In this document: piece by piece, positions 37,239-64,000 of the stretch
Layout of the letters: the number at the start of each line of letters is the position of its first letter
Numbering within the stretch: position 1 is the stretch's first letter
DNA from: a virus
DNA length: 64,000 nucleotides
Strand: one strand, 5' to 3'
Virus record (IMG/VR): IMGVR_UViG_3300021197_001898
Made by a program: the position numbers and the translations under genes
The notes under the pieces: model-generated
What the model was told of the DNA's origin: nothing
Seen by the model: only the letters and a program-made list of their open reading frames with translations
Databases searched by the model: none

Positions 37239-37239
37239 C

Positions 37240-48896: not shown

Positions 48897-48904
48897 AACA
48901 TTAT

Positions 48905-48911: not shown

Positions 48912-48917
48912 CCTAGA

Positions 48918-50189: not shown

Positions 50190-50410
50190 TAATCACTACC
50201 AACTGTTTTAAAGTTCTCGTCTACCTTGCTAGCCGCTTCGATAGGCTCTTGATCAAACTTAAAAACAGGAGGGTTCATAACAGTAAGCTCTTCATTTTCA
50301 TTTACTTGAAAATTAAACTCTCTCAAAACTGGTACGATATCTGTCTGCTCTATTAATGACTTTTGCAAAGCCATCATGATGGCACCTAATGCCTGATCTG
50401 AAATTCTCAT
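50189..50410 (-). CDS. Small hypothetical protein
   Basis: 73 aa; GGAG RBS and TAATG coupling to the next gene. Confidence 0.7.
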   Translation of the reverse strand: MRISDQALGAIMMALQKSLIEQTDIVPVLREFNFQVNENEELTVMNPPVFKFDQEPIEAASKVDENFKTVGSD

Positions 50411-50411
50411 A

Positions 50412-51269
50412 TTATTTCTCCTTTTCTTCTACTACTGCTCGTCCTTTTAGATTTTCCCAATCTTTCTCTGGTCGAACTTCTAGATTTGTTTGCCAAGCTG
50501 CTTTAATCACATTGGCGTTTACTCCGCACTTGTCTGCAAAGTCGATGAAAGCGTTTATGTCTTTTGGAAAGCAACTCCCTCCAAATCCCCATTTGCCGTC
50601 AGGGCCTGGGACGTTAAGGTGAGAATCACCGACGCGACCGTCAGCTGCAAAGCCTGCGAGGGCTAAATCCCAGTCGACTCCAGCCTTTTGACACACAAGC
50701 TTCATTTCATTGGCGAAGGCCACCTTAACAGAGAAGAAAACATTATTAAAATATTTTACGAATTCTGCTGTATTGTGGTCCATCTCCATAATGTTGCAGT
50801 GCTTAAACCTCAATCTATATAATTGAGCTACTCGTTCCGTGTGTGCAGGCTCTCCACCCAATACAATTCTTGCCTGATTTAGAAAGTCGTATTTTGCATG
50901 TCGTTCTGTGAGGAACTCTGGGTTAAATACAATGTTCAGGTTTGGATGCTCTTCGCACAAGGACTTTGTCGTCCCCGGAGTGACTGTTGATTTAATGATC
51001 ACTACGTTGTCATCTCTTGTATTGACACGACCAATGTCACTCAGCACAGCGCGGACAATGGCCAAGCTTATTGATCCGTCTTTATTCATTGGAGTCGGGA
51101 CCGAAACAAAGATAATGTCTGACCCGTTTACCGTCTCCTCTAAAGAATTCATACTTCGAAGAGGGTCCTTGTCGTGGACGTGTACGGGTAACACCGGTAC
51201 AAAACCGAAGCCTATCGCCTGTCCTACGAAGCCATTCCCAATGACTCCTACTGCCTTAATATCACTCAT
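50412..51269 (-). CDS. ugd: UDP-glucose/GDP-mannose dehydrogenase family protein (lacks C-terminal domain)
   Basis: GNGFVG, FVSVPTP, IKSTVTPGT, FNPEFLTE, AEFVKYFNN and GFGGSCFPKD with the catalytic Cys; only 285 aa. Confidence 0.9.
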   Translation of the reverse strand: MSDIKAVGVIGNGFVGQAIGFGFVPVLPVHVHDKDPLRSMNSLEETVNGSDIIFVSVPTPMNKDGSISLAIVRAVLSDIGRVNTRDDNVVIIKSTVTPGTTKSLCEEHPNLNIVFNPEFLTERHAKYDFLNQARIVLGGEPAHTERVAQLYRLRFKHCNIMEMDHNTAEFVKYFNNVFFSVKVAFANEMKLVCQKAGVDWDLALAGFAADGRVGDSHLNVPGPDGKWGFGGSCFPKDINAFIDFADKCGVNANVIKAAWQTNLEVRPEKDWENLKGRAVVEEKEK

Positions 51270-52110
51270 CTACAAACTCCGAAAAACATTTCTTTATCCC
51301 TTCTGATATGTTCACTTTTGGTGTCCAACCTAGATCTAAAAGAGGTTGAATATTTGCCCTTGTCAATTTGACATCTCCAGGTCGGTCGGGAACATACTCG
51401 AAATCTAGATCCGGCAAAGACTCTAACACTGCTGACTTCATCTGGTTCAAAGAAATATTATTTCCTGTTCCAACATCCAGCGCTTTTCCTAGTAGATCTT
51501 TATTGGATCTGTTGTTCATACAAAAAATATTAGCAGAAACGACATCACTAACGTGAGCCATGTCTCTTCTCTGTTCTCCATCACCTGTTATATATGGCGT
51601 CTTACCATCCTGAATAAACCTTCTCCAGTTCGCCACGCAAGTAGCGTATGGACCTTCGGCAACCTGGTCAACAGAATACACGTTAAAGTATCTAAGAGCA
51701 ACAGTGTCCAGCCCGTAAAGACGATTGTACAAAAGAGTCTCAATTTCTCCGACGTACTTCGACAAAGCGTATGGACTCTCTGGTCCGCTACCATTGCCTT
51801 CCACTGAAGAAGAACTGGAGTAGACTACCATTGCTCCTACTTCTTTTGCAAACTCTAATACCAAAGAAGTCGAATGGACATTGTTGTGCATAACTTCCAC
51901 CGGGAATTCAATACTATATACGACTCTAGGAATTGCTGCTAAATGGAAAACCACTTCTGGTTTGAAGTCATAGTGCTTTTGCTTGAAGCCGTTCAAGATA
52001 TCTTCATCTTCTTTTAAATCAATCCCCATGACATTGTGGCCCAGGGCTTCTAACTCTCTAAAAAGATTGCCGCCAATATAGCCCTTATGTCCGGTAACTA
52101 GTAGATTCAT
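51262..52110 (-). CDS. NAD-dependent epimerase/dehydratase (extended SDR)
   Basis: LVTGHKGYIG, FHLAA, SSSS, YALSK (YxxxK), LRYFNVY and RDMAHVSD. Confidence 0.92.
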   Translation of the reverse strand: MNLLVTGHKGYIGGNLFRELEALGHNVMGIDLKEDEDILNGFKQKHYDFKPEVVFHLAAIPRVVYSIEFPVEVMHNNVHSTSLVLEFAKEVGAMVVYSSSSSVEGNGSGPESPYALSKYVGEIETLLYNRLYGLDTVALRYFNVYSVDQVAEGPYATCVANWRRFIQDGKTPYITGDGEQRRDMAHVSDVVSANIFCMNNRSNKDLLGKALDVGTGNNISLNQMKSAVLESLPDLDFEYVPDRPGDVKLTRANIQPLLDLGWTPKVNISEGIKKCFSEFVDE

Positions 52111-52790
52111 TAGGTGTAGCCTGCCTTTTTCAACTCTTCCTCAAAAGAGACCAGCTCTTCTGGTGTACAAATATCCTTGTATGCGTCCCTGTTTCTACCA
52201 ATCCCCTTCGCACTTAGCTTTCTCTTCCCGTAATCCGTTTTATCGCCCTTCCCAGCCCTAGCAAGAACCGAGACATTCCAGTCGAAAACCCAATCATCAA
52301 CATATTCTGGATAATTAGAAAAGTGGTCTTTTCTTTGAATACCGAAGATATTGCTAATGTTCTCTTGAATTCTATTTGGAGACTTAACAAGATCCTCATA
52401 CCGGACTTCGTAATCAATGATGTCTGAATATTTCTCTCTTTGCTTCATTGCCGAGAGATACCTTTCAGGCTTAACATAGTTGCCGTCTGACAGGACAACG
52501 TCGCGTCCGTCTCTTATAACATTGATGATTCCAATATCATTTTTTCTTATCCACTCAATCTGGTCTTCGAACTCTGGCTCTTCCAGATTACTCAAAACAC
52601 ACGGAGGAAGCCTTTTCCCAATAAGGAATCTCTTGTCGGAATCTAAATTGACAAATTCACTTAAAGGTAGCTCGTGACCGTTGAACCCAGTCCTATAGGC
52701 TACTTCAGTGTCTTTGAATCCAAAGCACATTCTCAAGAGTAATGTTGTGCCTGTCTTTGCGCACCCTGTTATGAAAATTTTTCTTGCCAT
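52110..52790 (-). CDS. Sulfotransferase family protein
   Basis: 5'-PSB loop ITGCAKTGTTLL, 3'-PB motif IRDGRDVVLS, and VRYEDLV. Confidence 0.8.
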   Translation of the reverse strand: MARKIFITGCAKTGTTLLLRMCFGFKDTEVAYRTGFNGHELPLSEFVNLDSDKRFLIGKRLPPCVLSNLEEPEFEDQIEWIRKNDIGIINVIRDGRDVVLSDGNYVKPERYLSAMKQREKYSDIIDYEVRYEDLVKSPNRIQENISNIFGIQRKDHFSNYPEYVDDWVFDWNVSVLARAGKGDKTDYGKRKLSAKGIGRNRDAYKDICTPEELVSFEEELKKAGYT

Positions 52791-52791
52791 T

Positions 52792-53409
52792 TTATACTTC
52801 CCAAGTCTTATATTCTGGTTGCTTTGTTTTGTTGGTATTGTGCATCCTATAACGATAGAATGGAATCTTCAGGTGATGAATACTATATTTATCTCCGAGC
52901 CTCTTTCTAAGCTCTACCTCTTCTTTGTGTCTCATCTTAGGGTTATAACCTCCAAGATCCAAAAACAAATCTCTACGATACATTATACCACAAGATATGT
53001 TTTCATTTTCAGCATATTTTCTCTCAATCGTGTTCTCGTAATCATCAACCATCACATAGTCTGAAGAAACACAAAAGGCATCATGATTTGATTCAAGATA
53101 CTTCTTCATCATATACGCCATATCTTTATTAATGTAATCGTCAGCATCAACCCTAAAAAAGAACTGACCTCTAGCGTTTTGGATTCCTAAATTAGCTGCG
53201 ACAGCTACGCCAGAATTCTTTTCAGTTTTTAAAAACCTAATCTGCTCTGAGAATGGCCGAATCATTTCGGACGAATTATCTGTGCTACAGTCATCGACAA
53301 CTATGACCTCAAACAGTAATCTTTCCTGGTTCAAACAACTCCGCAAGCAACGAGATATATATTTTCCATAATTATAATTCGTTACGATTATTGATACTTC
53401 TGGTATCAT
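52792..53409 (-). CDS. Glycosyltransferase family 2
   Basis: SIIVTNYNY, VVDDCSTD, DxD motif RVDADD. Confidence 0.9.
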   Translation of the reverse strand: MIPEVSIIVTNYNYGKYISRCLRSCLNQERLLFEVIVVDDCSTDNSSEMIRPFSEQIRFLKTEKNSGVAVAANLGIQNARGQFFFRVDADDYINKDMAYMMKKYLESNHDAFCVSSDYVMVDDYENTIERKYAENENISCGIMYRRDLFLDLGGYNPKMRHKEEVELRKRLGDKYSIHHLKIPFYRYRMHNTNKTKQPEYKTWEV

Positions 53410-54116
53410 TATTTACTCCTGATAATTTCTAATTCTCTCGTTAGGTCTTTGAACTTCTTTAGAGATTCTTGATCGAACGACCCTAAGTGACCTCCCTCAA
53501 ATCTTGATTGCGCTAACGTATTATTACTGTAGTGTTTCTCTAATATCTTTGCTCCGCTAAAGTGAGCTTGTAGTGGTGCTGCGATGCCTATTGTGTGATC
53601 ACTGTATCCAAAGTACGACCCCTTTTCAAACTTCTCTGGCATTTCTTTTAGGGCTTCGTCATGTAAAAAGGTTGGATACTTTGACACACAAAAAAGATAT
53701 CTTATTTTTTCACCGTGGCCAAATGGAAATTCCCCCTTAGCGCAAGCTCCTGTTGAAATGATGGTTGGTTTGTTTTCTTTAAGGATTGCCTCACAAAGTT
53801 TGGGGTCTTCCTTTACTGTTCTGCTTGCGATCTTGTGTCTCTTGATTCCTAGAGTCTTTGTCCAGCTAAGGCGATCCATATCAAAAGGTGTGGCCATCAA
53901 AGGAATGCTCAAGCTATCGCAGAACTCTTTAAGCTGAGCGAAGGTCTCAAAATTAATGTCACGATACTTCTTATCTGTGTTTCCAAAGAACTTTTCAGAA
54001 TCCATTAGCTGGATCTTTACAACATCTGCGCCTGCTGACCAAGCGTTGAGTGCCATTCTTTTCAACTCGGATGTGGATCCGAAGTGTTGGTTACATAAGT
54101 CAACTATTATTTCCAT
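53409..54116 (-). CDS. neuB: N-acetylneuraminate (nonulosonate) synthase family, short form
   Basis: GADVVKIQ, ATPFD, KIASR, IISTG, CVSKYPT, GYSDHTIG and LEKHY motifs; 235 aa with no C-terminal SAF/AFP domain. Confidence 0.88.
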   Translation of the reverse strand: MEIIVDLCNQHFGSTSELKRMALNAWSAGADVVKIQLMDSEKFFGNTDKKYRDINFETFAQLKEFCDSLSIPLMATPFDMDRLSWTKTLGIKRHKIASRTVKEDPKLCEAILKENKPTIISTGACAKGEFPFGHGEKIRYLFCVSKYPTFLHDEALKEMPEKFEKGSYFGYSDHTIGIAAPLQAHFSGAKILEKHYSNNTLAQSRFEGGHLGSFDQESLKKFKDLTRELEIIRSK

Positions 54117-54807
54117 TTAAATACTCCTTTAAGAGAGGAGGGGTTTTGCACCTTATCTCCAGCATCTTTTCAAAACTCATATCTTTTGTTTGGTACAGCT
54201 TCCCTCTTTGTTCCAGTGGGCACGCTGTAACCGAATCATATAATATATTATATATGCTTTCTTCCAAAATGTCAAACCCTGTGTTGCAAGTTCTCATAAA
54301 AATATCTTCTGGATTGTCTTCTATTGTTAAGCCTGTTGTATTTCTTTGTGCAACGACCTGACCACCGTCTATAGAATTGTCAATAAAGTGTAAAGTTGCC
54401 CCTACAGTATCTAACCTGCCTTCGTCGATAGCCCAAAAAGGACTGTCAACCCCTCGATGATGTTGTACTAAGCCCGTATGGATGTTCACGCATCCCCTTC
54501 TAGGGATATTATATAGGTCTTCTTTCAAAAGAGGTGCGCCAAAAACAAAACAAATTTCAGGATTAATTTCTGACAACAATCTCTTCATTCTTTTTGACCT
54601 TAACTGCTCTTTCGTGCACTGAACAATCTTTGCACTAACTGGTTCAAAGTCCTTATCTCCGAAGAATTTATTCTCCGATGCCCTAAACTGTTTATTGCCT
54701 TCCGGTTTTGACACAACAACGATGTGAGACAATTGAATGTGCTTGCCTATTCTCTCTATAAACTCTCTATGTCGAAGATTATCTGAAGTTATTGCGATAT
54801 AGTTCAT
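54100..54807 (-). CDS. Formyltransferase (N10-formyl-THF dependent), sugar N-formyltransferase-like
   Basis: CVNIHTGLVQHHRGVDSPFWAI (HxSLLPxxRG-like) and TLHFIDNSIDGGQVVAQ. Confidence 0.82.
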   Translation of the reverse strand: MNYIAITSDNLRHREFIERIGKHIQLSHIVVVSKPEGNKQFRASENKFFGDKDFEPVSAKIVQCTKEQLRSKRMKRLLSEINPEICFVFGAPLLKEDLYNIPRRGCVNIHTGLVQHHRGVDSPFWAIDEGRLDTVGATLHFIDNSIDGGQVVAQRNTTGLTIEDNPEDIFMRTCNTGFDILEESIYNILYDSVTACPLEQRGKLYQTKDMSFEKMLEIRCKTPPLLKEYLNGNNS

Positions 54808-55487
54808 AGTTTTACTGGCACTCTTCCCATTCTGGTGAAGCCTTCGCCGCGTTCTACCCCTATGGAGTATCCACGAACCCTCGTTAAACCGTCGATAAAG
54901 GACATTATTTTATTTAAAATCCCCAATTGTGAGCAATATTCTGCCATTGCTGCCTCTTTCCACTCATATGTGTCCGTTATATCTACAACGATATCCGGAT
55001 TAGGGTGAGGATCTAATATCTCGAACGACCAAAGATCTTTTACATTGTGCGTCTCTCCGAGTTCTTCTAAGATGTTCTCTGACGCTTTCCAACATGCTTC
55101 TTCGACCAATGCTGAAGTTCTCTTGTGATCGCGATGTTTACAGACTGGGTTGTGAGTTATGACAAGGTCTGGCTTGACTTCTCTAATCTTTGCTATGACC
55201 TTGTGGAAGTTTGCCTGCTTGTTTGATATTCTCTGACAGGGTAGGCGTAAATTATGAACCTTGCTGATTCCCAGTATCATTGCAACGCGCAATGCTTCAG
55301 CATCTCTAGTCGCTTCCAGATTGCCGTCATCAGTTCCCTGCTCCAGCCCTGTTGCTCCGTCAGTCATAAAGCAAACATCGATCTCTGATCCTGCAAAAGA
55401 CCACTTCCTGATTGTGCCTGCACAGCCGATTGTTTCATCGTCTTGATGTGCGGCAAATATCAATACTTTTTTAGGGACTTCGAACAC
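54804..55487 (-). CDS. PIG-L/LmbE family N-deacetylase
   Basis: AAHQDDETIGC (HxDDE) and THNP..KHRDH (HxDH) motifs. Confidence 0.88.
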   Translation of the reverse strand: MFEVPKKVLIFAAHQDDETIGCAGTIRKWSFAGSEIDVCFMTDGATGLEQGTDDGNLEATRDAEALRVAMILGISKVHNLRLPCQRISNKQANFHKVIAKIREVKPDLVITHNPVCKHRDHKRTSALVEEACWKASENILEELGETHNVKDLWSFEILDPHPNPDIVVDITDTYEWKEAAMAEYCSQLGILNKIMSFIDGLTRVRGYSIGVERGEGFTRMGRVPVKL

Positions 55488-56088
55488 TGTTTTTCTCTAT
55501 TCGATTAACATCGTCAATGGTGTGTACGTCTTCTACATCACAAATAAAGGCGCCCGTTTTAGTGCTAAGCTCTCTCTGATATACATACCAGTTTTTCATT
55601 ATCCGAAAGGCTGCGTTCATCATCAGACCACGGTCGACACTGATAAGTTCGTTTCTTTCGTTGATGATGAACGATTCTATTGCGTTATCTAAAATCTTTC
55701 CCGTCATCTCAGGTGAGTTAGCCTGTAGAGAGACGACCACTTCTGGCTTGTAATAGTTTCTCTCTATAAAACTGGTAGCTTCTCTAATTGCTGCCATCTT
55801 ATATACATGGTCTTCTGACAACTTTGGGTCCCGCTTGTGGACTCTTGCGCCGGCTTCGAGAGCTACTCTCTCTATCTCTTCGTCTTCTGTTGTGACCCAC
55901 ACGTCAGTGATGTGCGAGCTTTCTTTTGCTGCCTTAACTGCCCAATAGAGCATTGGTTTTCCCCAGATAGGATATATGTTTTTTCTTTTTAATCTTTTCG
56001 ACCCGCCGCGTGCGGGGATGATAGCTACTATTTTTGGCGTCTTGGCGTCGATTAAGTCGGCTAAGCCTGTCATAAGTCCTTCAATCAT
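55471..56088 (-). CDS. neuA: Acylneuraminate (CMP-nonulosonate) cytidylyltransferase
   Basis: AIIPARGGSKRLKRKNI P-loop, VTTEDEEI, LQANSP and DVHTIDD. Confidence 0.9.
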   Translation of the reverse strand: MIEGLMTGLADLIDAKTPKIVAIIPARGGSKRLKRKNIYPIWGKPMLYWAVKAAKESSHITDVWVTTEDEEIERVALEAGARVHKRDPKLSEDHVYKMAAIREATSFIERNYYKPEVVVSLQANSPEMTGKILDNAIESFIINERNELISVDRGLMMNAAFRIMKNWYVYQRELSTKTGAFICDVEDVHTIDDVNRIEKNSVRSP

Positions 56089-57104
56089 GGTTGGTATAAT
56101 AACATATCAAGTATTGTTTTGCAAGAACCTTTGTAATCAAAAAGGTGTTTTTGTCTTGCCTCTTTGAACTCTGAAGACAAGTCTGCTGTTGTCAAGTGTC
56201 CTATTGCTGCTATCATCTGTGGAACAGTGAAACTCTTTGGCATATCTACACAGTAATTATAATTATATAAGTAATCGTGAGTCACCCTGAATTGCTTCTT
56301 GTTTCCGTTTCTAAACTCGGGCTTGATATCGAAATTTATCAGTGGAACATCTTGCATAACACACTCTTCTATTGTTGTCGATCCAAAGTTAATAACTAAA
56401 TCACTCACCTCCAAAAGCTCCTGCGTCGTGTGTGGGTGCCAAGACGTGTCTTCAAAGTAGAAATTACCAGTATCTTTCAACTTCTGCTGTGCCTCGTTTG
56501 TTAGTGGATCTTTCCCTCTCGTCTTTATGATTATGGTGTACCCTTGACTCTCTAATGCTAGAAAAATCTTTTCCATATCGACTTGACCCTCGTCTCTACG
56601 CTTGGGCCAAACGATTAATGCGTTCTTACTATCTCTGGGGATTGAGTACTTCTCTAATATTCTTTCTTTGTCAAGATCAATGTCATATTTAGAGATCCCT
56701 AAAAACAGGTTCTTCTCAGTTGTTAGTCCATAATATTCTGCACAAAACTTACTAGGCATCAGAACGTGGTCTACGTGATCAACATACAGGTGGTAACTTT
56801 CAATAAAGTCTGTTTGGTACGTTGCAACAATTTTCTTTGTGTTTTTTGCCTCTTTTACGATGTTTATTCCAGTCTTTTCACTGGAGAACAAAAGACCACA
56901 AGAGCTTTTTACTGCAGAGAGCGGCAAGATATTGATATTGTGACTTTGCGCCAAGTCTCTAAGGACAGCCTCATGACGCATAGGGCAGTTGTACTTGTGA
57001 GATGGGCCAATATAGAATGTAGATTGTATCTTGCGTCTGTTTCCTTCAATCACCAGTGGCATCCAATATCTTAGGTGCGTCATTTCCATCAACAAAAAAT
57101 TCAT
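56085..57104 (-). CDS. GT-B-fold surface carbohydrate biosynthesis protein (candidate ulosonyl/phosphotransferase)
   Basis: C-terminal IIIKTRG...LLEVSDLVINFGSTTIEECVMQDVPLINF resembles the GT-B nucleotide-binding tail; coupled to neuA by an ATGA-type overlap. Confidence 0.55.
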   Translation of the reverse strand: MNFLLMEMTHLRYWMPLVIEGNRRKIQSTFYIGPSHKYNCPMRHEAVLRDLAQSHNINILPLSAVKSSCGLLFSSEKTGINIVKEAKNTKKIVATYQTDFIESYHLYVDHVDHVLMPSKFCAEYYGLTTEKNLFLGISKYDIDLDKERILEKYSIPRDSKNALIVWPKRRDEGQVDMEKIFLALESQGYTIIIKTRGKDPLTNEAQQKLKDTGNFYFEDTSWHPHTTQELLEVSDLVINFGSTTIEECVMQDVPLINFDIKPEFRNGNKKQFRVTHDYLYNYNYCVDMPKSFTVPQMIAAIGHLTTADLSSEFKEARQKHLFDYKGSCKTILDMLLYQP

Positions 57105-57727: not shown

Positions 57728-58434
57728 TATAGATCCTCCATAAAAACGAACTCTATATTGTCCTTGTCGTTGTCCAGCATCTCTATCAATTCTTGAGTGT
57801 GTGTCCAGCTCATATAGTTTCTGTCCCACTCACAGGCGTGGTACACGATGCCGCAGCTCTCCTTGAGTTCAAGAGGCCGGAATGGTGGAAAGATAGTCGA
57901 ATAATTCGATTTATATTCCTTGTCTTTACCCTGATAGGACTTTATTGCATAATCAATGTCGGTTACTGCAAACAACTCAAAGCCCTCGTCGTTAAGCGCC
58001 TCCCAAGCTTGTGGACCCATCCGCCAAGCTGGTGGTCTAAATATTGGTTTGAACACGTCTTGCAGGCCTGCCTTTGCCACTTGACTTTTCATAGACTTGA
58101 TTCTTTTAATTGCCTCATCGTACTCTATATCCAAAAATTCATTATTGTCATTTTCTCCCGGTATACCATGATAATATCCGTGATAACAAACCTCGAAGTT
58201 GTCTGGAGACAAGTTCTTCAGGACATCACAGAAGCCAGGGTACTTCCAGATGACAAGTGGCTCTGGTGTTGCCACTCCTAGCCTCTGAGTTCTCCAATAT
58301 GCGATAGGTACAAAAAGGCTTATTTTAATGTCCGGGAAGGCCTCTATAAGCTCCGTACAGCGGTCTAAAACCTTTACAGATGCCTTAGGGTGGGGTGAAA
58401 CGTCATCAATACTTATGTTTACTCTGTACTTCAA
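57727..58434 (-). CDS. Polysaccharide deacetylase-like protein (CE4/DUF2334-type)
   Basis: ISIDDV, SLFVP, EVCYHGYYH and FRPPAW motifs. Confidence 0.75.
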   Translation of the reverse strand: MKYRVNISIDDVSPHPKASVKVLDRCTELIEAFPDIKISLFVPIAYWRTQRLGVATPEPLVIWKYPGFCDVLKNLSPDNFEVCYHGYYHGIPGENDNNEFLDIEYDEAIKRIKSMKSQVAKAGLQDVFKPIFRPPAWRMGPQAWEALNDEGFELFAVTDIDYAIKSYQGKDKEYKSNYSTIFPPFRPLELKESCGIVYHACEWDRNYMSWTHTQELIEMLDNDKDNIEFVFMEDL

Positions 58435-59354
58435 ACCTTAAGTCCCCACAAAAAGTTTTTCATCAGTAGATCATATTCTGATCTATCTTTGTCTTGCAAG
58501 TATGCCTCTTCGGAAAAATAGCTAATCAACTCTTGTCCAAAGATATCCTCAAATCTTTTTGATATTGTCTTTGCGTCAGAGTTTTCTTTCCACTTGTTTA
58601 AGAAAGATGGATCTTCCTTTCTTATATAGTTATATTCTCCAGGCCCTAAGATAAAGCCATGTCGCTGGCAATACAGGACATCCTCTTTCCTCCCTTCCCT
58701 GATCGACGAAGACTTTCTCTCTATTTTTTCAGAGCCACAAACATTACATTCATCTAGCACAGCCAGATCACTCGAACTCACAACAGGAACGTCCAAGCAC
58801 TTAAACACTCTTGCCAGCTCTCCGTCGACATCGTTGAAGAAGTGTTCAAAGCTTATTATATTATCCCTCTTGGGGTCAAAGTTTTGAGCAAGCTCGTAAA
58901 GAGAAGACATAAAAGTTGCCTTAAACCACTCAAATACTTCTTCGTCTGTTACATTTCTGCCGTATCTTCTATCTCCATACTCTTTCCATTTCTTGATCCA
59001 AGTATAGTAAAATGAAACAGGGTTTCTAAAAATATAAAGTACCGGGATATCCGGATGAAACGTACGATGATAGTTTATCATTTTGAGTGGAGGCTTGTTC
59101 ATTATAAGCCACTCAACACTGGAGTCTAAATCCTTCTTTGGTAATAGTTGCTCTGTGTATAGCTGTCCAGATGGAAAGCTACTCTGCACTGCTAAATAGT
59201 GCTTAAAGTCACCCTTTGTGGTGCCCCCTTGACTTCGAAAAGAACTCTCTTTGAGGGTAACTAGCGCGGGGTGTCCTTGCAATTTGTGAAGGACAAAATG
59301 AGAACCGATGCCGCCGCTAGCTGTTATTAATGCTGCTATCTTTGGTTTTTTCAA
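58431..59354 (-). CDS. Divergent sulfotransferase-like protein with zinc-ribbon insertion
   Basis: ITASGGIGSHFV loop, IFRNPVSFY (RNP..S-like) and ISFEHF; internal CNVC...CQRH. Confidence 0.55.
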   Translation of the reverse strand: MKKPKIAALITASGGIGSHFVLHKLQGHPALVTLKESSFRSQGGTTKGDFKHYLAVQSSFPSGQLYTEQLLPKKDLDSSVEWLIMNKPPLKMINYHRTFHPDIPVLYIFRNPVSFYYTWIKKWKEYGDRRYGRNVTDEEVFEWFKATFMSSLYELAQNFDPKRDNIISFEHFFNDVDGELARVFKCLDVPVVSSSDLAVLDECNVCGSEKIERKSSSIREGRKEDVLYCQRHGFILGPGEYNYIRKEDPSFLNKWKENSDAKTISKRFEDIFGQELISYFSEEAYLQDKDRSEYDLLMKNFLWGLKV

Positions 59355-60264
59355 GACAAACCTCCTCTATAATCTCAATATATTCTTTAACAATGTCATC
59401 ATTGTCGATTATGTACTTAAACAATTTTTCTTTGTAACTTCTGTAATGATAAATGACTCTGCGAATGTTTTTAAGCATATCTTCAAACGAAGAGTACTCT
59501 TCTCCATATTTGTGACAATAGTTGTTAATACTGCCACCATCCTTGTGATACACGACCGGAAGACCAGCAGCCAAAGCCTCCAGTACGTGATTGGCGCCGG
59601 CTTCTTCAATCGATGCCGTGATATAAATATCGTTTTTTTGCAATTCTTTGGCGACCAATTGAGAACCCATTGGAGGCTTGTAATTGGTTAGCTTAATATC
59701 TTCAGGAAGTCTTCCGACATATGTAAACTCAAATTCTCCAGTTTCTTGGATATGCTCGTCTAGCTGTTTATACAGGTGAAATCCCTTTTTCGGATTTGTC
59801 GACCAGTGGTGAGTTATCAGTTTTGGCTTGCCTGTTATTATTGATTCCACATTTTTGTGTAGATGAAACACGTCCATTGGAGCATTGTGGATAACTCGAC
59901 AGTTTTCTCCAGCAAACCCTATCCACTCTTTTGCCCACTCACTCGGAAAGATAAAATAATCTGAAAGGTTTAATGTTTGCTTTACCAACCTTGTAAGCTC
60001 TGGCTTGCTGTGGGTTCCTAAATCTCCGACTCTCTGTATTATCTTGCACTCTGGGAAGCTCGACTTGTAATTCAAAAAGTTCTGATACCACTCTCCGATG
60101 TCATTCGGCCTAGGGTCAATGCAGAAAATTATATCGATTCCAGGCTGGAGGTCGAAAACCACTTCATGATCCTCATCTTCAAGCTTATCTACTAGCTTGT
60201 TGACGGTTTTTATTCCTCCACCCCAAGGACCAGTCTTTGGTTTGCGGTTCAGGTATATTTTCAT
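59317..60264 (-). CDS. Glycosyltransferase family 4 (GT-B)
   Basis: GPWGGG N-terminal loop, IFPSEW, IYITASIEEAGANHVLEALAAGLPVV (Ex7E motif). Confidence 0.88.
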   Translation of the reverse strand: MKIYLNRKPKTGPWGGGIKTVNKLVDKLEDEDHEVVFDLQPGIDIIFCIDPRPNDIGEWYQNFLNYKSSFPECKIIQRVGDLGTHSKPELTRLVKQTLNLSDYFIFPSEWAKEWIGFAGENCRVIHNAPMDVFHLHKNVESIITGKPKLITHHWSTNPKKGFHLYKQLDEHIQETGEFEFTYVGRLPEDIKLTNYKPPMGSQLVAKELQKNDIYITASIEEAGANHVLEALAAGLPVVYHKDGGSINNYCHKYGEEYSSFEDMLKNIRRVIYHYRSYKEKLFKYIIDNDDIVKEYIEIIEEVCLEKTKDSSINNS

Positions 60265-61202
60265 ATTTCGATGCCGACTATATCCGGAGAGTCTTTTAGC
60301 TTGATCCAGTGCCCCTTTTCATCAATCGGCAAAGTCCACTCAATCGCTTCAGTGATGTCCTCAATCGGCATTGGATAAGGCTGATCCATATGCTCTTCGA
60401 CCAAAGGCTCAAAGTCATGAATCTTGTAATAGCACACCCCTGTATCGTCTCCCGGTGGAGCCCAGTAGTCTCCAAACCTCTGTCTTCCACGCACTCTTGC
60501 GTTTCCACCTTTGTCGTTAAAGATGCCGACAGACACAGGGATAACAGGCGAAGCATAGAATATAGTCATATTCTTCGACTTGACTAGTTCTGCAACTCTC
60601 TTTAGCATTTTAGTTTCAGAGTCTCCTCCACCTTCGTGAGAATCATTAACGATTTCCCAAGGATAAATTGTATCAAGCATCTCTTTTGTAACCATACAAT
60701 TCATAGCTCCCATAACAGGGTTCCGGTTAAAGTGATATAAGAACTTAAAATCACCATCTCCCAAGAGGTTGGAGTACCTTCCCATAGAGTTTCTTATTCT
60801 CCTTTGTGCATCAAATGAAATACAACCGGTAGTGTCTTCGTACTTCTGAAAGAACTCGACGTACTCCTGAAGCCACCCACCTTTTACAACGAACTGAACA
60901 TCTGCTGGAATTGGTGCCACATATTCACCTGTGGAGTTCTCTGCAATAAGGTTTAGTGCTTTCGCATATTCGTTTGCTGGATCTCTCTCCTTTTGGACGA
61001 ATACCTTGAATCCTCTGTCTTTCAGGCTTTCTAAATATTCATCTGTACCATCCTCTGTTGATGCATTATCAACAACGATGATCTCTTTATTATCATAATC
61101 TTCAGTGCATTGCAAAAAAGACTCGACGCAACTCTTGAGGTAGTGTAGCCTATTGCAATTGACAAACGCAAATGTCACCTTTGGTAATTCACTCACTATC
61201 AT
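60261..61202 (-). CDS. Glycosyltransferase family 2
   Basis: VTFAFVNCNR..YLKSCVES, IIVVDNASTED and N..GEYVAPIPADVQF. Confidence 0.82.
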   Translation of the reverse strand: MIVSELPKVTFAFVNCNRLHYLKSCVESFLQCTEDYDNKEIIVVDNASTEDGTDEYLESLKDRGFKVFVQKERDPANEYAKALNLIAENSTGEYVAPIPADVQFVVKGGWLQEYVEFFQKYEDTTGCISFDAQRRIRNSMGRYSNLLGDGDFKFLYHFNRNPVMGAMNCMVTKEMLDTIYPWEIVNDSHEGGGDSETKMLKRVAELVKSKNMTIFYASPVIPVSVGIFNDKGGNARVRGRQRFGDYWAPPGDDTGVCYYKIHDFEPLVEEHMDQPYPMPIEDITEAIEWTLPIDEKGHWIKLKDSPDIVGIEI

Positions 61203-61241
61203 ACTCCTTTTCTATTTTTTGGTCTATGTGGGTATACGCCA

Positions 61242-62330
61242 TTATACTTCTCCATGTTTGATAAGTCTTTTTACGACATTCGCAATTCTTGGTCCTGATT
61301 TGCCGTCCCAAAGAGTCGGTTTCTTGTGTGTTTTGTTTTTACTCTTTTTGATTGCTTTTATACTTTTCACAATATCCTCTTTTGTATCAACTAACTTGTT
61401 TGTTCCTTCGTGAATAGTTGCCGGCCTTTCTGTGTTCTTCCTCAATGTCAAGCAAGGGATACCCAAAGCAGTTGTTTCCTCCTGGATACCACCAGAGTCA
61501 GTCAAAACAACTAAACTGTTCTTCATCAAAGAAACAAACTCAAAGTACCCGACCGGGTCTACGACTTCCATATTTGGATTGCTTAATACTTCCTCCAACA
61601 ACCCTAAGCGACTTAGACTGTTCCTAGTTCTTGGGTGCATAGGGAATACAATCTTTGTATCGATTGAATCACATATGTCTATTACCTTTTTGAGGCCTTC
61701 CTCTGTGTCAACATTCGAAGGTCGATGTAGGGTCACTAGGACGTATTCATAGTCGTATTTTGCCTCTGGTATTGAGTCTAGCACTCTGTAGAGAGAATCT
61801 ATCATTGTGTTTCCGACCAAAGTCATATTATGAGGGTCATGACCCTCTTCTACCAAATTCTGTATGCCAGAGTGCTCAGTTACAAAATGGAAATCAGAGA
61901 CCCTGTCTACGATCATTCTGTTAATCTCTTCAGGCATTTTGCGATCAAAGCTTCTCAGACCAGATTCGACATGTGCTACTTTTATCCCCATCTTAACTGC
62001 AGCTAGTGTTGCTCCCAATGTAGAGTTTACGTCTCCATACACTATCAGTAAATTAATATTTTTTGTACTAAGATATTTTTCTATCCCAACAACGACATCT
62101 GCAACTTGCTGTCCTTGCATTTTTGAAGACCCAATCTTAAGGTTAATGTCTGGCTTTGGCATCTCCAAAGCAGAAAAGAAAACTCCCGACAAGCTCTTAT
62201 CATAGTGCTGGCCTGTGTGTATTAAAATCTGTTCAGCATCGGGCATCAGTTCCTTAATGCTCCTGATAACTGGAGCGGCCTTTACAAAGTTTGGCCTTGC
62301 TCCAACGACGTGTACAATTTTAGCTTTCAA
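61242..62330 (-). CDS. wecB: UDP-N-acetylglucosamine 2-epimerase (non-hydrolysing type)
   Basis: VVGARPNFVK, HTGQHYD, YGDVNST, HVESGLRS, MPEEINR, TLHRPSN and TDSGGIQEE...RKNTERP. Confidence 0.93.
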   Translation of the reverse strand: MKAKIVHVVGARPNFVKAAPVIRSIKELMPDAEQILIHTGQHYDKSLSGVFFSALEMPKPDINLKIGSSKMQGQQVADVVVGIEKYLSTKNINLLIVYGDVNSTLGATLAAVKMGIKVAHVESGLRSFDRKMPEEINRMIVDRVSDFHFVTEHSGIQNLVEEGHDPHNMTLVGNTMIDSLYRVLDSIPEAKYDYEYVLVTLHRPSNVDTEEGLKKVIDICDSIDTKIVFPMHPRTRNSLSRLGLLEEVLSNPNMEVVDPVGYFEFVSLMKNSLVVLTDSGGIQEETTALGIPCLTLRKNTERPATIHEGTNKLVDTKEDIVKSIKAIKKSKNKTHKKPTLWDGKSGPRIANVVKRLIKHGEV

Positions 62331-63276
62331 TTAGATTTTCTCCTTCTCTCAGTCCAGCTGACAATGCCCATTCATCAGCCCACTGCTCGACGCCGGCAAA
62401 CGAAACCCTCTCCAACCAGGCGCACATAAATCCATCAACCTTTACCAGCATTCCCTTGCCTTTTCTAATTTGGTATATCAAACCGGGTTGGCCATGAATC
62501 TTACACGAATCTATCGAAACTTTCCAAACAAATAACTTACCTAGCTTTGTTTCGAGCCAAGCGCCCGGATACGGATGAGTCAAAGCCCTCACATAGTCGC
62601 TGATCTTTATCGGAGGCCAAGATAAATCTATCTTACCATCTTCTGGCGTTCTTTTATAGTATCTAGTTGCTTTAGCCTTATCTTGTACTTTTAGTTTTTC
62701 TTTATTTTCTGATATCTTTTTTACTGTTCTCTCCAGCATAATTAGTGCTGTTTTATCAACCTTTTGGTATGCTGTCCGGATGTCGTCTCTGGTCTCTATC
62801 GTGAAAGGTTCGAAGTCTATCACTGCTCCAGTGTCTGTCTTTGGCTCCATAACAAAAAGACTGTTACCCCATTCAACTGGTATCCCGTTGCTCTCTATTA
62901 TCTTCCAATTGATTATTGCTGCGCCTCTTCCCTCTGGGAGTGGCGACGGATGTATTCCAATACAATACTTCGATGGAATGTCAAGAATGTGTGGTTTGAA
63001 TATTTGAGACCATCCGCACTGGACGATGACTTCTGGATTCTTTGATTTTATCCATTTTGTCGTTTGTGCATTATTGATGTCTTTTGTTAAGAATGGGTCA
63101 CATATATCTGCCAAAGAATCATAATTTGATTTTGTTAAACCCTTGTCCGGATGCAAGCTCACAACCCCAACAAGATTTGAGGTTTTCTTTAAAAGGTTTA
63201 CAACTTTTCTTGCTAAGGGAGTGCACCCAACAACGAGTGTCTTTAGGTTTGTGACGTGAGGATCTTGTTCGCCCAT
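62320..63276 (-). CDS. Formyltransferase, FMT/ArnA N-terminal-like (two-domain)
   Basis: VQCGWSQI, IGIHPSPLPEGRGAAIINW, DTGAVI, and the FMT C-terminal domain (DGKIDLSW...VRALTHPYPGAW). Confidence 0.88.
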   Translation of the reverse strand: MGEQDPHVTNLKTLVVGCTPLARKVVNLLKKTSNLVGVVSLHPDKGLTKSNYDSLADICDPFLTKDINNAQTTKWIKSKNPEVIVQCGWSQIFKPHILDIPSKYCIGIHPSPLPEGRGAAIINWKIIESNGIPVEWGNSLFVMEPKTDTGAVIDFEPFTIETRDDIRTAYQKVDKTALIMLERTVKKISENKEKLKVQDKAKATRYYKRTPEDGKIDLSWPPIKISDYVRALTHPYPGAWLETKLGKLFVWKVSIDSCKIHGQPGLIYQIRKGKGMLVKVDGFMCAWLERVSFAGVEQWADEWALSAGLREGENLIES

Positions 63277-63800
63277 CTATTTGCTATCTCCTTATGGCCG
63301 GCGTTCGTAAAGTGAACACCGTCAACATAATGCTTTTCGACACCAGACATATCACACACGTCTAGGCCGAGTTCATTAGATAGCTTCATTATAACAGAGT
63401 TATATGAATTAATCAAGTAAGAATTCTTGTAATAAAGGGGAGTCATGCCAAGCTTCGGGAGGGTGGATATGATAATGTGCATTCCATTAATCTTACATAT
63501 GTCAATTATTTGACGTAAGTTATCTTCATATACCTCCGGAGGTATTGCTTTTTGGGTATCGTTTGTGCCGATCATAATGAATGCAATGTTTGCGACCTTG
63601 TGAGCAGAGGCCGCTCTCCAAGTTCTCTTAAGGAGGTCTACGCTTGTTTCACCACTTATGCCGTGATTGTGACAAATGTAAACCTCTCCAGTCTTTTCCT
63701 TCATTATCTTCGACAACTCAATAGTGGGAGACCTAGCGTATTCGTCTCTGGCTCCATAAGTAATGGAGTCTCCCAAACAAAGTATTTCATTCCAAATCAT
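63243..63800 (-). CDS. SGNH/GDSL hydrolase (O-acetylesterase/acetyltransferase-like)
   Basis: LGDSIT (block I), HGISGETS (II), IGTND (III) and DGVHF (V). Confidence 0.88.
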   Translation of the reverse strand: MIWNEILCLGDSITYGARDEYARSPTIELSKIMKEKTGEVYICHNHGISGETSVDLLKRTWRAASAHKVANIAFIMIGTNDTQKAIPPEVYEDNLRQIIDICKINGMHIIISTLPKLGMTPLYYKNSYLINSYNSVIMKLSNELGLDVCDMSGVEKHYVDGVHFTNAGHKEIANRWANKILTSQT

Positions 63801-64000
63801 AGTCTATAATGCTCTTTCATCCATTGTACGGTTTCCCACACACCCTCTTCGAGAGAGACAGTGTTTTTGTGATCTAGATCTCTTACCGACTTCGAAGCAT
63901 CAACGTGCTTATGCTTTGTTGTCAAGACTTCTCCATGCTCTCTGTAGTCCACCAAAGACGCATCTGCCTTTGTATATTTTACCAGAAGCTCAGCAAGATT
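63797..64000 (-). CDS. C-terminal fragment of a probable NAD-dependent epimerase/dehydratase (partial; absent from ORF track)
   Basis: Hand translation: NLAELLVKYTKADASLVDYREHGEVLTTKHKHVDASKSVRDLDHKNTVSLEEGVWETVQWMKEHYRL*. This matches the extended-SDR C-terminal pattern; ATGA overlap with the SGNH gene. Confidence 0.7.
   Translation of the reverse strand, partial: NLAELLVKYTKADASLVDYREHGEVLTTKHKHVDASKSVRDLDHKNTVSLEEGVWETVQWMKEHYRL

Follow-up and report, generated by a model that had tools for sequence, protein, structure and literature searches.

A hypervariable glycan-biosynthesis island with a NeuB/NeuA cassette in a lineage of marine myoviruses

Which glycan is made by a long run of sugar genes next to the tail genes of a phage, and to which acceptor is it attached? 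These questions are raised by one end of the 64-kb stretch of viral DNA analysed here (the window), which the initial annotation read as an integrated, phage-borne glycan-synthesis system.

Extent and phage context of the island

All of the 18 co-oriented, mostly coupled genes described earlier at 50412-64000 were found (18/18), each on the minus strand. Neighbours overlap by 1-38 nt at 15 of their 17 junctions, the remaining two being gaps of 1 nt and 39 nt. However, the boundary first drawn was wrong at one end. The 18 genes make up the last 13.6 kb (3' half) of a ~25-kb glycan-biosynthesis island of ~31 genes, about twice the size first given and about one eighth of the phage genome, and ~11.7 kb with 13 more genes lie past base 64000. 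Based on Pfam and NCBIfam profile searches, the window genes were assigned as follows.

48918..50410, minus strand: conserved 3' border (73-aa protein, FmdB-type zinc-ribbon protein, 113-aa protein, late-sigma-like protein)
50412..51269, minus strand: truncated NDP-sugar 6-dehydrogenase, 285 aa, the island's last gene
51262..52110, minus strand: SDR NDP-sugar epimerase or reductase, 282 aa (Pfam Epimerase, 1.2e-37)
52110..52790, minus strand: sulfotransferase, 226 aa (Pfam Sulfotransfer_3, 30.3 bits, cut-off 27)
52792..53409, minus strand: short GT2 glycosyltransferase, 205 aa (Pfam Glycos_transf_2, 3e-33)
53409..54116, minus strand: NeuB-family PEP-condensing synthase, 235 aa (Pfam NeuB, 1.8e-33)
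54100..54807, minus strand: short N-formyltransferase, 235 aa (Pfam Formyl_trans_N, 4e-13)
54804..55487, minus strand: PIG-L/LmbE-type de-N-acetylase, 227 aa (Pfam PIG-L, 1.8e-27)
55471..56088, minus strand: CMP-ulosonic acid synthetase (NeuA/PseF/KdsB family), 205 aa (Pfam CTP_transf_3, 1.7e-23)
56085..57104, minus strand: TagF-like GT-B enzyme, 339 aa (predicted structure and homologue profiles)
57101..57727, minus strand: 208-aa protein, weakly class I SAM-methyltransferase-like (ESM-Atlas features)
57727..58434, minus strand: DUF2334 protein, polysaccharide-deacetylase-like, 235 aa (Pfam DUF2334, 1.3e-09)
58431..59354, minus strand: sulfotransferase-like protein, 307 aa (Sulfotransfer_3, 25.2 bits, under cut-off 27)
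59317..60264, minus strand: GT4-like glycosyltransferase, 315 aa (Pfam Glyco_trans_1_4 / Glycos_transf_1, 2e-06)
60261..61202, minus strand: GT2 glycosyltransferase, 313 aa (Pfam Glycos_transf_2, 2.9e-17)
61203..61241, minus strand: gene-deletion scar (junction sequences compared with a variant)
61242..62330, minus strand: non-hydrolysing UDP-GlcNAc 2-epimerase (WecB type), 362 aa (Pfam Epimerase_2)
62320..63276, minus strand: formyltransferase-fold protein, ArnA-N/Fmt-like, 318 aa (Pfam Formyl_trans_N and Formyl_trans_C; N and C domains)
63243..63800, minus strand: SGNH/GDSL hydrolase, 185 aa (Pfam Lipase_GDSL_2, 1.5e-22)
63797..64000, minus strand: SDR (NDP-sugar epimerase/dehydratase), C-terminal 67 of 315 aa (Pfam Epimerase/GDP_Man_Dehyd)

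The island occupies a fixed slot in marine myoviruses of about 150-190 kb, with a PD-(D/E)XK nuclease gene on one side and late-sigma and tail genes on the other, and this placement is backed by independent assemblies and by a complete relative, G001 (192,597 bp, CheckV 100%), which is syntenic from portal to island. The 3' border includes an 85-aa zinc ribbon (TIGR02605), a 113-aa protein with one hydrophobic segment and a 238-aa late-sigma-like protein (PHROG late sigma, 2.1e-05); tail and baseplate genes follow, and the border gene order is identical in L007-L009, L015 and G001. Portal, terL, primase, baseplate wedge and late-sigma-like genes all lie in the same 64-kb window, confirming the phage context.

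Two separate contigs of a single NCBI assembly match the window at 100% identity, and each breaks within the island near 58.6-60.2 kb, as might be expected if the block were a mis-assembled or decaying host-derived insert, functionless for the phage. However, identical NeuB and SGNH genes with the same neighbours are found on more than 20 contigs (ENA, NCBI, JGI, Logan), assemblies made independently (85 kb, 108 kb and 180-198 kb) show the same junctions, 22 IMG/VR loci keep the slot, as do two cultured phages, and the GC content of the island equals that of the rest of the window, with no break. Codon differences to a 99.3% identical population variant (72 synonymous versus 14 non-synonymous) show that the island genes are under strong purifying selection, and the catalytic motifs of NeuB, PIG-L, SGNH hydrolase, SDRs, dehydrogenase and the 226-aa sulfotransferase are intact. 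Recurring junctions, conserved slot, selection and GC refute an artefact or passenger, to which we assign practically no probability; the phage-borne system, with its NeuB/NeuA core and its formyl, sulfo and other tailoring enzymes, stands. Island DNA was present in seawater runs from at least nine studies, and no RNA run containing it was among the matches listed.

Enzymes encoded in the window

NeuB and NeuA, which together constitute a CMP-ulosonic acid core, are both present as first annotated. The CMP-ulosonic-acid cassette comprises these two, the TagF-like GT-B, the short GT2 and a sulfotransferase. NeuB retains the KIQ, KIAS, CVSKYP, SDHT and EKH motifs in alignments to 6ncs and 8h2c, although it consists of the TIM barrel only, without the SAF domain, and scores far under the cut-off with the NCBIfam models NeuB_NnaB (101.8 bits) and PseI (87.8 bits). 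The NeuB genes of the phage lineage form a single, lineage-specific clade (support 100, 20 rows). NeuA reaches 91.6 bits with PseF, under the cut-off of 205.7, and scores lower still with the KdsB models.

The gene adjoining NeuA in every case in sister phages had been noted as a GT-B candidate, a reading refined here to TagF-like. Its AF2 model (pLDDT 93.9) matches NeuC 5zlr, TagF 3l7i and TarL with VIA Z of 20.9, 20.4 and 19.1, its homologues carry Pfam Glyphos_transf (13/42) or Epimerase_2 (3/42), and its Atlas features lead to Glyphos_transf and polysialyltransferase; it is a candidate transferase with a CMP-linked donor. The short GT2 gene directly follows NeuB in all NeuB-bearing sister phages (70-79% identity to the homologues of L007, L008 and L009), and after it the 226-aa sulfotransferase is conserved, with an N-terminal AKTGTT P-loop and 107 homologues, most with PF13469, with or without PF00685. 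Of the two sulfotransferases proposed earlier, this one has a credible PAPS loop, whereas the 307-aa protein has a degenerate 5'-phosphosulfate (PAPS) loop, SGGIGSH, in which Lys is missing, and gave no PDB sequence match; its sequence makes a sulfotransferase function doubtful.

The 2-epimerase belongs to the family first named, but is of WecB type (NCBIfam wecB 297.1 bits, cut-off 210), and a hydrolysing NeuC was rejected, as the NeuC model, with its cut-off at 235.9, gave just 82.6 bits. The product of WecB-type enzymes is UDP-ManNAc; this step is accompanied in the island by the truncated dehydrogenase and the SDRs. With no NeuC in the island, the canonical sialic acid route is therefore not encoded, and the pathway as read is incomplete, because the NeuB substrate is left without a recognisable hydrolysing epimerase. 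The UDP-sugar dehydrogenase assignment holds for its family (NCBIfam NDP-sugDHase 191.8 bits, cut-off 189.8; profile positions 60-295 of 413), its Rossmann and central domains, the catalytic Cys and the GNGFVG and GGSC motifs, but the C-terminal UDP-binding domain is absent; the L008 counterpart is 83% identical. The 282-aa SDR carries GxxGxxG and YxxxK motifs. The 315-aa SDR, whose start lies beyond the window end together with 12 further island genes, is complete in L010, L011 and L013 (contigs 99-100% identical to the window) and scores 107 bits, under the cut-off, with NCBIfam dTDP-glucose 4,6-dehydratase. An ADP-heptose-type module of kinase, nucleotidyltransferase, HAD phosphatase and GT9 transferase is also located outside the window.

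The PIG-L protein has AHQDD and HRDH motifs (BshB1 126 bits, under cut-off) and the short formyltransferase retains the NIH...D catalytic residues. Their genes co-vary across phages and are both missing in L007 and L015, suggesting a putative acetyl-to-formyl swap module. The short enzyme showed no similarity to DpdN, the preQ1 formyltransferase of phage immuto. Both formyltransferase folds of the initial annotation were found, but the 318-aa protein (ArnA 118 bits, PRK06988 118.7 bits, both under cut-off) has its catalytic Asn replaced, the motif being GIHPSPLPEGRG. The SGNH hydrolase (GDS at residue 10, DGVH at residue 160) may act on the glycan as an O-acyl esterase or transferase, and the DUF2334 protein weakly matches GlcNAc-phosphatidylglycerol deacetylase. 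The 208-aa protein is methyltransferase-like only weakly, with an ESM-Atlas feature score of 0.93 to Methyltransf_11 clusters from only 152-166 shared features; it has no Pfam or NCBIfam match and no GxGxG motif. The 313-aa GT2 has no transmembrane segment, and homologues of the 315-aa GT4 are present in many sister islands. The whole island encodes at least nine glycosyltransferase domains and a NodU-like carbamoyltransferase (136 bits, cut-off 1000 bits).

Conserved start and variable interior

All 22 IMG/VR loci with a fully read 694-aa gene open with PDDEXK-GT4-694aa and then diverge (a 23rd, L048, has a partial 694-aa match only). The GT4 and the 694-aa double glycosyltransferase are always kept as the first two genes of the island, and most of the interior is swapped among sister phages, resembling bacterial O-antigen loci. 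L037-L040 reach SDR-UGDH without NeuB, NeuA or the TagF-like gene in 10 kb read downstream. Hence the nonulosonate-capped glycan proposed earlier keeps its cassette, but as several sister islands lack NeuB/NeuA it is not the defining feature, and the cassette is one exchangeable module of a hypervariable island. Variation extends into a single population: the scar is a clean in-frame loss of a 230-aa Methyltransf_24/CmcI-like methyltransferase gene, which is kept in the 99.3% identical variant, occurs in L001, L005, L010 and L012 and is missing from the window and L011.

The top structural match of the 694-aa N-domain is the chlorovirus NY-2A glycosyltransferase 3oy2 (Z 28.4; next 24.9), a likeness of fold, not function, at 16% identity. 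The C-domain belongs to a phage-restricted family whose member clusters are 97-100% viral. Homologues of the anchor GT4 occupy the same slot in Flavobacterium phage immuto and Microcystis phage Mel-JY01, whose hosts belong to two phyla (Bacteroidota, Cyanobacteria).

Possible acceptors of the glycan

No transmembrane-like segment is predicted in any island protein, and all are predicted to be soluble. Neither the island nor G001 encodes membrane export, priming or ligation proteins; G001 has no Bac_transf match, and only one of its 204 ORFs, a 113-aa protein, has at least three transmembrane-like segments. The anchor enzymes, with their 3oy2-like N-domain, viral C-domain and two-phylum slot, point to a phage acceptor, and we tentatively favor a reading in which a phage-encoded acceptor, probably part of the virion, is glycosylated in the cytoplasm (probability about 0.45). 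The GT4 and the 694-aa enzyme would act first, priming in the cytoplasm an acceptor that is conserved and most likely a phage-encoded protein; the variable cassettes would afterwards lengthen and decorate the chain, which in the window's phage may bear a nonulosonic acid, or another ulosonic acid, activated with CMP. As no aminotransferase is encoded in the island, free amino groups would arise by de-N-acetylation and then receive formate. A glycan coat that differs between strains would result, with no membrane step needed. The Ser/Thr-rich tract of p1128 (aa 270-358) was rejected as acceptor, having no counterpart in any G001 structural protein.

Soluble GT9, GT4 and TagF-like transferases, including peripheral ones, normally use lipid-linked intermediates of LPS, teichoic acid or capsule, and a product modified by the phage could leave through host MsbA, Wzx or ABC systems; a lack of phage membrane proteins is therefore compatible with a host target. 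The phage enzymes might work at the cytoplasmic face on host lipid-linked intermediates of LPS core, O-unit or capsule, or on host glycoproteins (flagellin or S-layer, for example), and host transporters would export the altered glycan, changing the infected cell surface and thereby providing superinfection exclusion, sparing progeny re-adsorption to debris or avoiding grazers. The LPS/capsule/teichoic-type families (GT9 with HldE-like kinase/nucleotidyltransferase, WecB, UDP-sugar dehydrogenase, TagF-like, GT2, GT4) are in line with this, and O-antigen-like hypervariability would suit an arms race in which a surface receptor is at stake. Comparable gene sets in cyanomyoviruses P-SSM2, S-SCSM1 and S-SCSM2R (for S-SCSM2R, 22 genes, with 13 glycosyltransferases plus KdsA/KdsB) were read as host-surface remodelling (PMC12801897), a reading that is itself a proposal. 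However, the phage lacks a priming phosphoglycosyltransferase, flippase, polymerase, ligase and Gtr-type membrane protein, the anchors are common to phages of Bacteroidota and Cyanobacteria, whose envelope acceptors are unlike, and the 694-aa C-domain family is almost entirely viral. Envelope remodelling is the main rival reading, less probable than a phage acceptor.

A third product could be a glycoconjugate, soluble or released, or a small glycoside, bound to neither virion nor envelope; it might signal like a Nod factor, as a decorated oligosaccharide, or act as a metabolite against host defence or competitors. Every island enzyme is predicted to be soluble, and the carbamoyltransferase, sulfotransferase, methyltransferase, deacetylases and GT2 recall the tailoring of Nod factors; but the island has no NodC-type membrane synthase, acyltransferase or exporter, and its NodU score is far under the cut-off. 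With more than nine transferase domains and differences down to the level of strains, the island suits a surface-exposed polymer better than a metabolite, making a free product improbable.

Finally, sugars might be placed on modified phage bases, blocking restriction. G001 has no gene of the Thymidylat_synt family, to which dCMP and dUMP hydroxymethylases belong, and no TGT/DpdA match, and no known DNA modification needs anything near the island's 31 genes and its nine or more transferase domains. LC-MS of immuto DNA detected fdPreQ1 beside canonical dA, dC and dT, and no base carrying a sugar, though an island lies at the same slot (PMC10516641). Although phage glycosyltransferases are able to assemble varied glycans on DNA, as in the glycan-modified 5-hydroxymethylpyrimidine DNAs of Pyle et al. 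2024 (Cell Rep; cited in PMC12619734), DNA glycosylation is unlikely here, as first judged, and as the role of the whole island it is very improbable.

Glycosylation of a phage acceptor thus remains our preferred reading, and with two cultured relatives carrying islands at the same slot, the question of the glycan target is testable.

Extent and phage ownership of the glycan island

The block at 50412-64000 consists of 18 consecutive ORFs on the minus strand, as initially annotated, and 15 of the 17 ORF junctions within it overlap by 1-38 nt. Each gene family named for it was borne out by Pfam and NCBIfam, and the portal, terL, primase, baseplate wedge proteins and a late-sigma-like protein are encoded in the same window and on the same strand. 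The ORFs, the families, the phage genes on the same strand and the GC content of the block (0.39-0.43, the same as in the remaining window) together indicate that the observation is real. The extent first assigned to the block was too small, since the window cuts the island; read from identical or 99% identical copies on public contigs, the whole island spans ~25 kb and holds ~31 genes. Those lying upstream of base 64000 are the following.

Island genes upstream of base 64000, in listed order
Position 1: SDR, 315 aa
Position 2: NodU-like carbamoyltransferase
Position 3: 235-aa protein, no assignment
Position 4: cupin
Position 5: HAD phosphatase
Position 6: HldE-domain-I kinase
Position 7: HldE-domain-II nucleotidyltransferase
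Position 8: GT9
Position 9: 323-aa protein, no assignment
Position 10: GT2
Position 11: 694-aa protein
Position 12: 421-aa GT4
Beyond the 421-aa GT4: PD-(D/E)XK nuclease gene, PhoH and ClpP

An ADP-heptose-type module that is nearly complete is thus carried by a phage: outside the window, contig L013 has at 14689-16690 split HldE-like kinase and nucleotidyltransferase genes, an HAD phosphatase, a cupin that may be an isomerase, and a short GT9.

Independent ENA, NCBI, JGI and Logan assemblies, on contigs of up to 85-198 kb, repeat this gene order and have phage genes flanking it on either side. Contiguity of the island with terL is given by the window itself, an 85-kb ENA contig and the syntenic genome G001, a relative from IMG/VR (192,597 bp, rated 100% complete) that keeps the gene order of the window from the portal, across the tail block, as far as the island, with amino acid identities of 82% for the portal and 74% for terL. 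Across the 17 complete genes, comparison with a variant from the population, 99.3% identical, showed 72 synonymous and 14 non-synonymous codon differences, indicating strong purifying selection. Island DNA turned up in runs from seawater and marine metagenomes that span 2012 to 2025 and at least nine studies, and no RNA run is among the runs listed as holding the stretch. A megablast search with 24 kb against 50,697 phage records gave no match.

One tailoring gene differs within the population. A CmcI/Methyltransf_24 methyltransferase gene (230 aa; 2226-2918 of the variant contig L001), found in the 99.3% identical contigs, is removed by a clean in-frame deletion at 61203-61241 of the window, leaving an 18-codon remnant, which is a presence/absence polymorphism of a tailoring gene inside one phage population. 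Synonymous differences to the variant are most numerous, at 16, in the adjacent GT2 gene (60261-61202). Two contigs of GCA_900491965.1, each 100% identical to the window, end within the island (L002 begins at 58577, and L011 stops at 60245), and the region of about 58577-60245 may be a micro-diverse spot that breaks assemblies.

Island architecture in sister phages and cultured relatives

Through the 694-aa protein, 23 IMG/VR loci were collected, in 22 of which the gene is fully read (the match in locus L048 is partial). All 22 fully read loci start with the PDDEXK gene, the 421-aa GT4 and the 694-aa protein, and their downstream content varies widely. The heptose and carbamoyl module is present in about nine loci, and unrelated genes are found in others. 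Four loci (L037-L040) reach the SDR-dehydrogenase pair, and the 10 kb read downstream in them has neither NeuB nor NeuA nor the TagF-like gene. The NeuB cassette, wherever it occurs, keeps a constant order: TagF-like, NeuA, (PIG-L, formyltransferase), NeuB, short GT2 and sulfotransferase. The bracketed PIG-L and formyltransferase pair is present in the window, G001 and the sister locus L008 and absent from the sister loci L007 and L015, and this variable presence supports an optional acetyl-to-formyl swap.

A constant slot with conserved first enzymes and swappable cassettes is, by analogy, the pattern of bacterial O-antigen and capsule loci, which likewise combine conserved flanks and first steps with a hypervariable interior of genes for sugar synthesis, transfer and tailoring, and exchange cassettes among close relatives. 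Unlike those loci, the island is viral, its proteins are all predicted to be soluble, and neither Wzx, Wzy or an ABC transporter nor an initiating phosphoglycosyltransferase or a ligase is among them. Large glycan-gene sets are already known in marine myoviruses: the cyanomyoviruses P-SSM2, S-SCSM1 and S-SCSM2R are likewise large marine myoviruses with many soluble glycosyltransferases and NDP-sugar epimerases, and the function of their LPS and cell-wall genes has been inferred (PMC12801897). The present phages belong to another lineage, their terL being ~32% identical to cyanophage terL, and their island differs in being one contiguous, overlapping array of ~31 genes in a fixed slot, with conserved starters and exchangeable cassettes. 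In S-SCSM2R the CMP-ulosonic pair is KdsA/KdsB (PMC12801897), whereas the island has a NeuB-family synthase and a NeuA/PseF-like synthetase. What appears to be new is the locus-level picture of a fixed slot, universal starters and swappable cassettes, together with the presence or absence of a tailoring gene within a population, the complete absence of membrane machinery and the tie to two cultured phage-host systems.

The 694-aa protein is, with the 421-aa GT4, one of the two anchor enzymes that open the island. In its structural model (pLDDT 87), the N-domain (residues 3-407) is a GT4, whose best structure match is the chlorovirus (PBCV) NY-2A glycosyltransferase 3oy2 (Z 28.4, next match 24.9); the fold agrees at a sequence identity of 16%, and the chlorovirus infects eukaryotes. 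Structural proteins of chloroviruses and giant viruses are believed to be glycosylated in the cytoplasm by machinery that these viruses encode. The C-domain (residues 408-694) is a compact GT-B-like domain whose Atlas clusters are 97-100% viral; other phages have it joined to a GT2 or a GT1 domain, and no paralogues of it were found elsewhere in the islands. The only homologues found of the anchor GT4 domain (28% identity; E 6e-39 and 7e-30) are those of Flavobacterium phage immuto (vB_FspM_immuto, on Flavobacterium sp. LMO8) and Microcystis phage Mel-JY01, which terL places nearest among cultured relatives. In each of them a PD-(D/E)XK gene precedes a glycan island of smaller size in the same slot; that of Mel-JY01 is ~6 kb long.

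Predicted sugar-synthesis and tailoring enzymes

The gene neuB encodes a 235-aa protein (PF03102, 116.5 bits against a cut-off of 22.1) that consists of the TIM barrel alone, the SAF (antifreeze-like) domain being absent. Alignment to PDB 6ncs and 8h2c shows that the KIQ, KIAS, CxSxYP, SDHT and EKH motifs are kept. It scores 101.8 bits with the NeuB_NnaB equivalog against a cut-off of 399.65, and PseI is likewise far below its cut-off. In the phylogenetic tree, a check proposed in the initial annotation, the NeuB sequences of this lineage form a single clade (support 100), nested in a larger clade of short NeuBs and separate from the long, SAF-bearing ones; clustered at 90% identity, NeuB yields more than 120 clusters. 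A 243-aa short NeuB, 42% identical, was also seen on the contig of P0117, in a mixed-strand, cellular-looking glycan cluster with three CTP_transf_3 genes, a radical SAM/SPASM protein, an aminotransferase and several methyltransferases; clusters of this type may be a plausible source, or a cellular reservoir, of SAF-less NeuB genes.

NeuA is a CTP_transf_3 protein (PF02348, 84 bits against a cut-off of 22.6), for which PseF is the nearest equivalog (91.6 bits, below the cut-off of 205.7) and the KdsB models score lower. A Polysacc_synt_2-type SDR adjoins NeuA only in the sister phage L015. The UDP-GlcNAc 2-epimerase, an Epimerase_2 protein, fits the WecB type and not NeuC: it scores 297 bits with wecB (cut-off 210) and 82.6 bits with NeuC_NnaA (cut-off 235.9). 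Since the WecB type is non-hydrolysing, the island contains no recognisable source of free ManNAc, and with this sole Epimerase_2 protein fitting wecB, the hydrolysing epimerase of the canonical NeuC-NeuB-NeuA route was not found. The island resembles the NeuC/NeuB/NeuA, pseudaminic and legionaminic acid pathways in its NeuB barrel with metal and PEP motifs, the adjoining CMP-sugar synthetase and a GT-B candidate. It differs from them in that no aminotransferase, N-acetyltransferase or PseG occurs among its ~31 genes, all equivalog models score far below their cut-offs, and a de-N-acetylase and a formyltransferase lie between neuA and neuB. In the literature on phage-encoded synthesis of nonulosonic, sialic, legionaminic and pseudaminic acids, no phage NeuB/NeuA pathway was found, only prophage enzymes that tailor Acinetobacter capsules. 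Among the 50,697 deposited phage records, no genuine phage was found to have NeuB, NeuA or TagF-like homologues, save one weak NeuA-like match in an uncultured 462-kb phage; the strong matches were confined to a mis-filed bacterial contig of Moritella viscosa.

The 339-aa protein, initially a GT-B candidate, retains that fold in its model (pLDDT 93.9) and is placed more closely, as TagF-like, by family profiles. Its nearest structures are NeuC (Z 20.9), TagF (20.4), 2-epimerases (~20), TarL (19.1) and TagF-like capsule polymerases (18.3), and among 42 homologues, 13 match Pfam Glyphos_transf and three match Epimerase_2. We read it as a TagF-like candidate transferase that would use a CMP-linked donor. 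It shares the GT-B fold (Z 19-20) with the teichoic acid polymerases TagF and TarL and, like them, would release CMP from its donor; it differs from them in having NeuA as neighbour and no adjoining gene for CDP-glycerol or CDP-ribitol synthesis, and it is equally near to NeuC-type epimerases (Z 20.9). Less probably, it could supply the NeuC or PseG hydrolase that the pathway lacks; the structure permits this, and the sequence profiles favour the TagF-like assignment.

The NDP-sugar dehydrogenase (50412-51269, minus strand) is the best-conserved island protein (83% identity in L008). It keeps GxGxxG and the catalytic GGSC. Missing from it are the whole UDP-sugar-binding domain at the C-terminus and ~25 residues that would follow the first Rossmann strand.

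Several tailoring assignments of the initial annotation stood in part. Of the two sulfotransferase-like proteins, the one of 226 aa is credible (30.3 bits against 27, with an AKTGTT loop and homologues carrying PF13469 with or without PF00685), whereas that of 307 aa falls below the Pfam cut-off (25.2 bits against 27) and has a degenerate 5'-phosphosulfate loop without Lys; a PDB sequence search gave nothing useful for either. Of the two formyltransferases, the short one (235 aa) has the Asn-His-Asp set, as NIH plus a downstream D-G-G motif, whereas the long formyltransferase-fold protein (318 aa; 62320-63276, minus strand) reads GIHPSPLPEGRG / GIHPS where the family has NxHxSLLPxxRG. The catalytic Asn is replaced by Gly, so this protein is possibly inactive or uses another mechanism. 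The methyltransferase likeness of the 208-aa protein is weak.

Two other assignments were considered and rejected. The island formyltransferases are not preQ1 formyltransferases of the DpdN kind found in immuto, since no similarity was detected at a threshold of E <= 1e-3, and across phages the presence of the short one follows that of PIG-L. The island also offers partial look-alikes of the Arn (Ara4FN) pathway, namely a dehydrogenase, an SDR, an ArnA-N-like formyltransferase, a GT2 and a DUF2334 protein. The ArnA-N-like formyltransferase scores 118 bits against an ArnA cut-off of 777, neither the pathway's aminotransferase nor ArnT was found in the island, and the island GT2s have no transmembrane segment. 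Outside the island, G001 encodes at 96839-98314 (minus strand) a 491-aa protein whose formyltransferase-like part is 25% identical to the short formyltransferase.

Acceptor of the glycan and meaning for marine phages

A simple hydropathy scan, which is not a dedicated predictor, found no transmembrane-like segments in the island proteins, and only one of the 204 ORFs of G001, encoding a 113-aa protein, has at least three such segments. The initiating transferase Bac_transf (PF02397) is absent from G001. These results imply that the phage encodes no flippase, polymerase, ligase, Gtr-type protein or oligosaccharyltransferase. The island is a selected, phage-owned set of soluble enzymes that covers the making of several activated sugars, many transferases and many tailoring steps.

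According to the proposed mechanism, the two conserved transferases would prime a conserved acceptor, and the cassettes would then lengthen and decorate the chain. As the island has no aminotransferase, amino groups would arise by de-N-acetylation of GlcNAc-derived residues, followed by re-acylation with formate. Either the TagF-like enzyme or the short GT2 would attach a CMP-activated ulosonic acid, and this residue may be sulfated. The acceptor is suggested to be encoded by the phage, and probably to belong to the virion, a reading to which we assign a probability of about 0.45. It is favoured because the anchors are kept across phages of Bacteroidota and Cyanobacteria, the C-domain of the larger anchor is restricted to viruses and no membrane steps are encoded. 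Mycobacteriophages were reported to use their own soluble glycosyltransferases on capsid and tail-tube proteins in the cytoplasm (Freeman et al. 2023, as cited in PMC12619734 and PMC12801897); they have 2-4 transferases and use host nucleotide sugars, whereas the island encodes entire pathways for making sugars and has roughly tenfold more genes.

The chief alternative, that the island remodels the host envelope, is somewhat less probable but a serious rival. Transferases of the island families normally act on lipid-linked acceptors at the cytoplasmic face of the membrane, and host systems could carry out the export; envelope remodelling is also the usual reading, itself putative, of cyanophage "LPS genes" (PMC12801897). 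Glycans are also known as DNA hypermodifications (Pyle et al. 2024, as cited in PMC12619734). The initial annotation had held glycosylation of DNA bases to be less likely, and G001 indeed has no thymidylate-synthase-family (PF00303) or TGT-family (PF01702) gene. Moreover, the DNA of immuto contains canonical dA, dC and dT with fdPreQ1, which replaces all dG, and no glycosylated base (PMC10516641), making DNA a very improbable acceptor. The absence of a TGT/DpdA family match from G001 contrasts with the fdPreQ1 of its relative immuto.

Among virion proteins, a Ser/Thr-rich tract was considered as a lineage-wide acceptor and rejected. It lies at aa 270-358 of a 1128-aa tail-block protein (13984-17370, minus strand), is made of repeat units such as STNTTTGGVTV, and is absent from all structural proteins of G001, including the 1590-aa homologue. 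A giant structural ORF of 3584 aa in the window (22342-33096, minus strand) corresponds to one of 5534 aa in G001 (35225-51829), with several separate blocks of 29-48% identity, so that the length of a virion protein varies greatly. A 428-aa protein encoded downstream of the sigma-like gene (47318-48604, minus strand) combines a VanY (D-Ala-D-Ala carboxypeptidase) domain with a tape-measure-like stretch and, judged by these domains, is likely a tail-associated cell-wall hydrolase.

With a phage-encoded acceptor, a fuller picture can be put forward tentatively. An entire lineage of marine myoviruses, among them phages cultured on Flavobacterium and Microcystis, may own a viral equivalent of the O-antigen locus, in which a phage-only double glycosyltransferase would prime a virion protein in the cytoplasm and cassettes would build a strain-specific coat without a membrane step, here formylated, sulfated and carbamoylated, with heptose and nonulosonate.

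If the glycan is on the virion, abundant ocean phages would have variable sugar coats, which could change how they adsorb to particles or non-host cells, how fast they decay, how many are lost to grazing and how host defences detect them, effects that are absent from current views of marine virus ecology. Surface chemistry, besides tail-fibre sequence, would then be a fast-diversifying trait of ocean phages. If the glycan is on the host, a lytic marine phage would be rewriting envelope chemistry with ~30 genes. Either way, the island supplies putative enzymes, including SAF-less NeuB synthases, a de-N-acetylase/formyltransferase pair for acetyl-to-formyl exchange, a truncated UDP-sugar dehydrogenase and a phage-restricted GT-B family. 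With the homologous slot present in two phage-host pairs in culture, the role of phage "LPS genes", a question of long standing, becomes directly testable.
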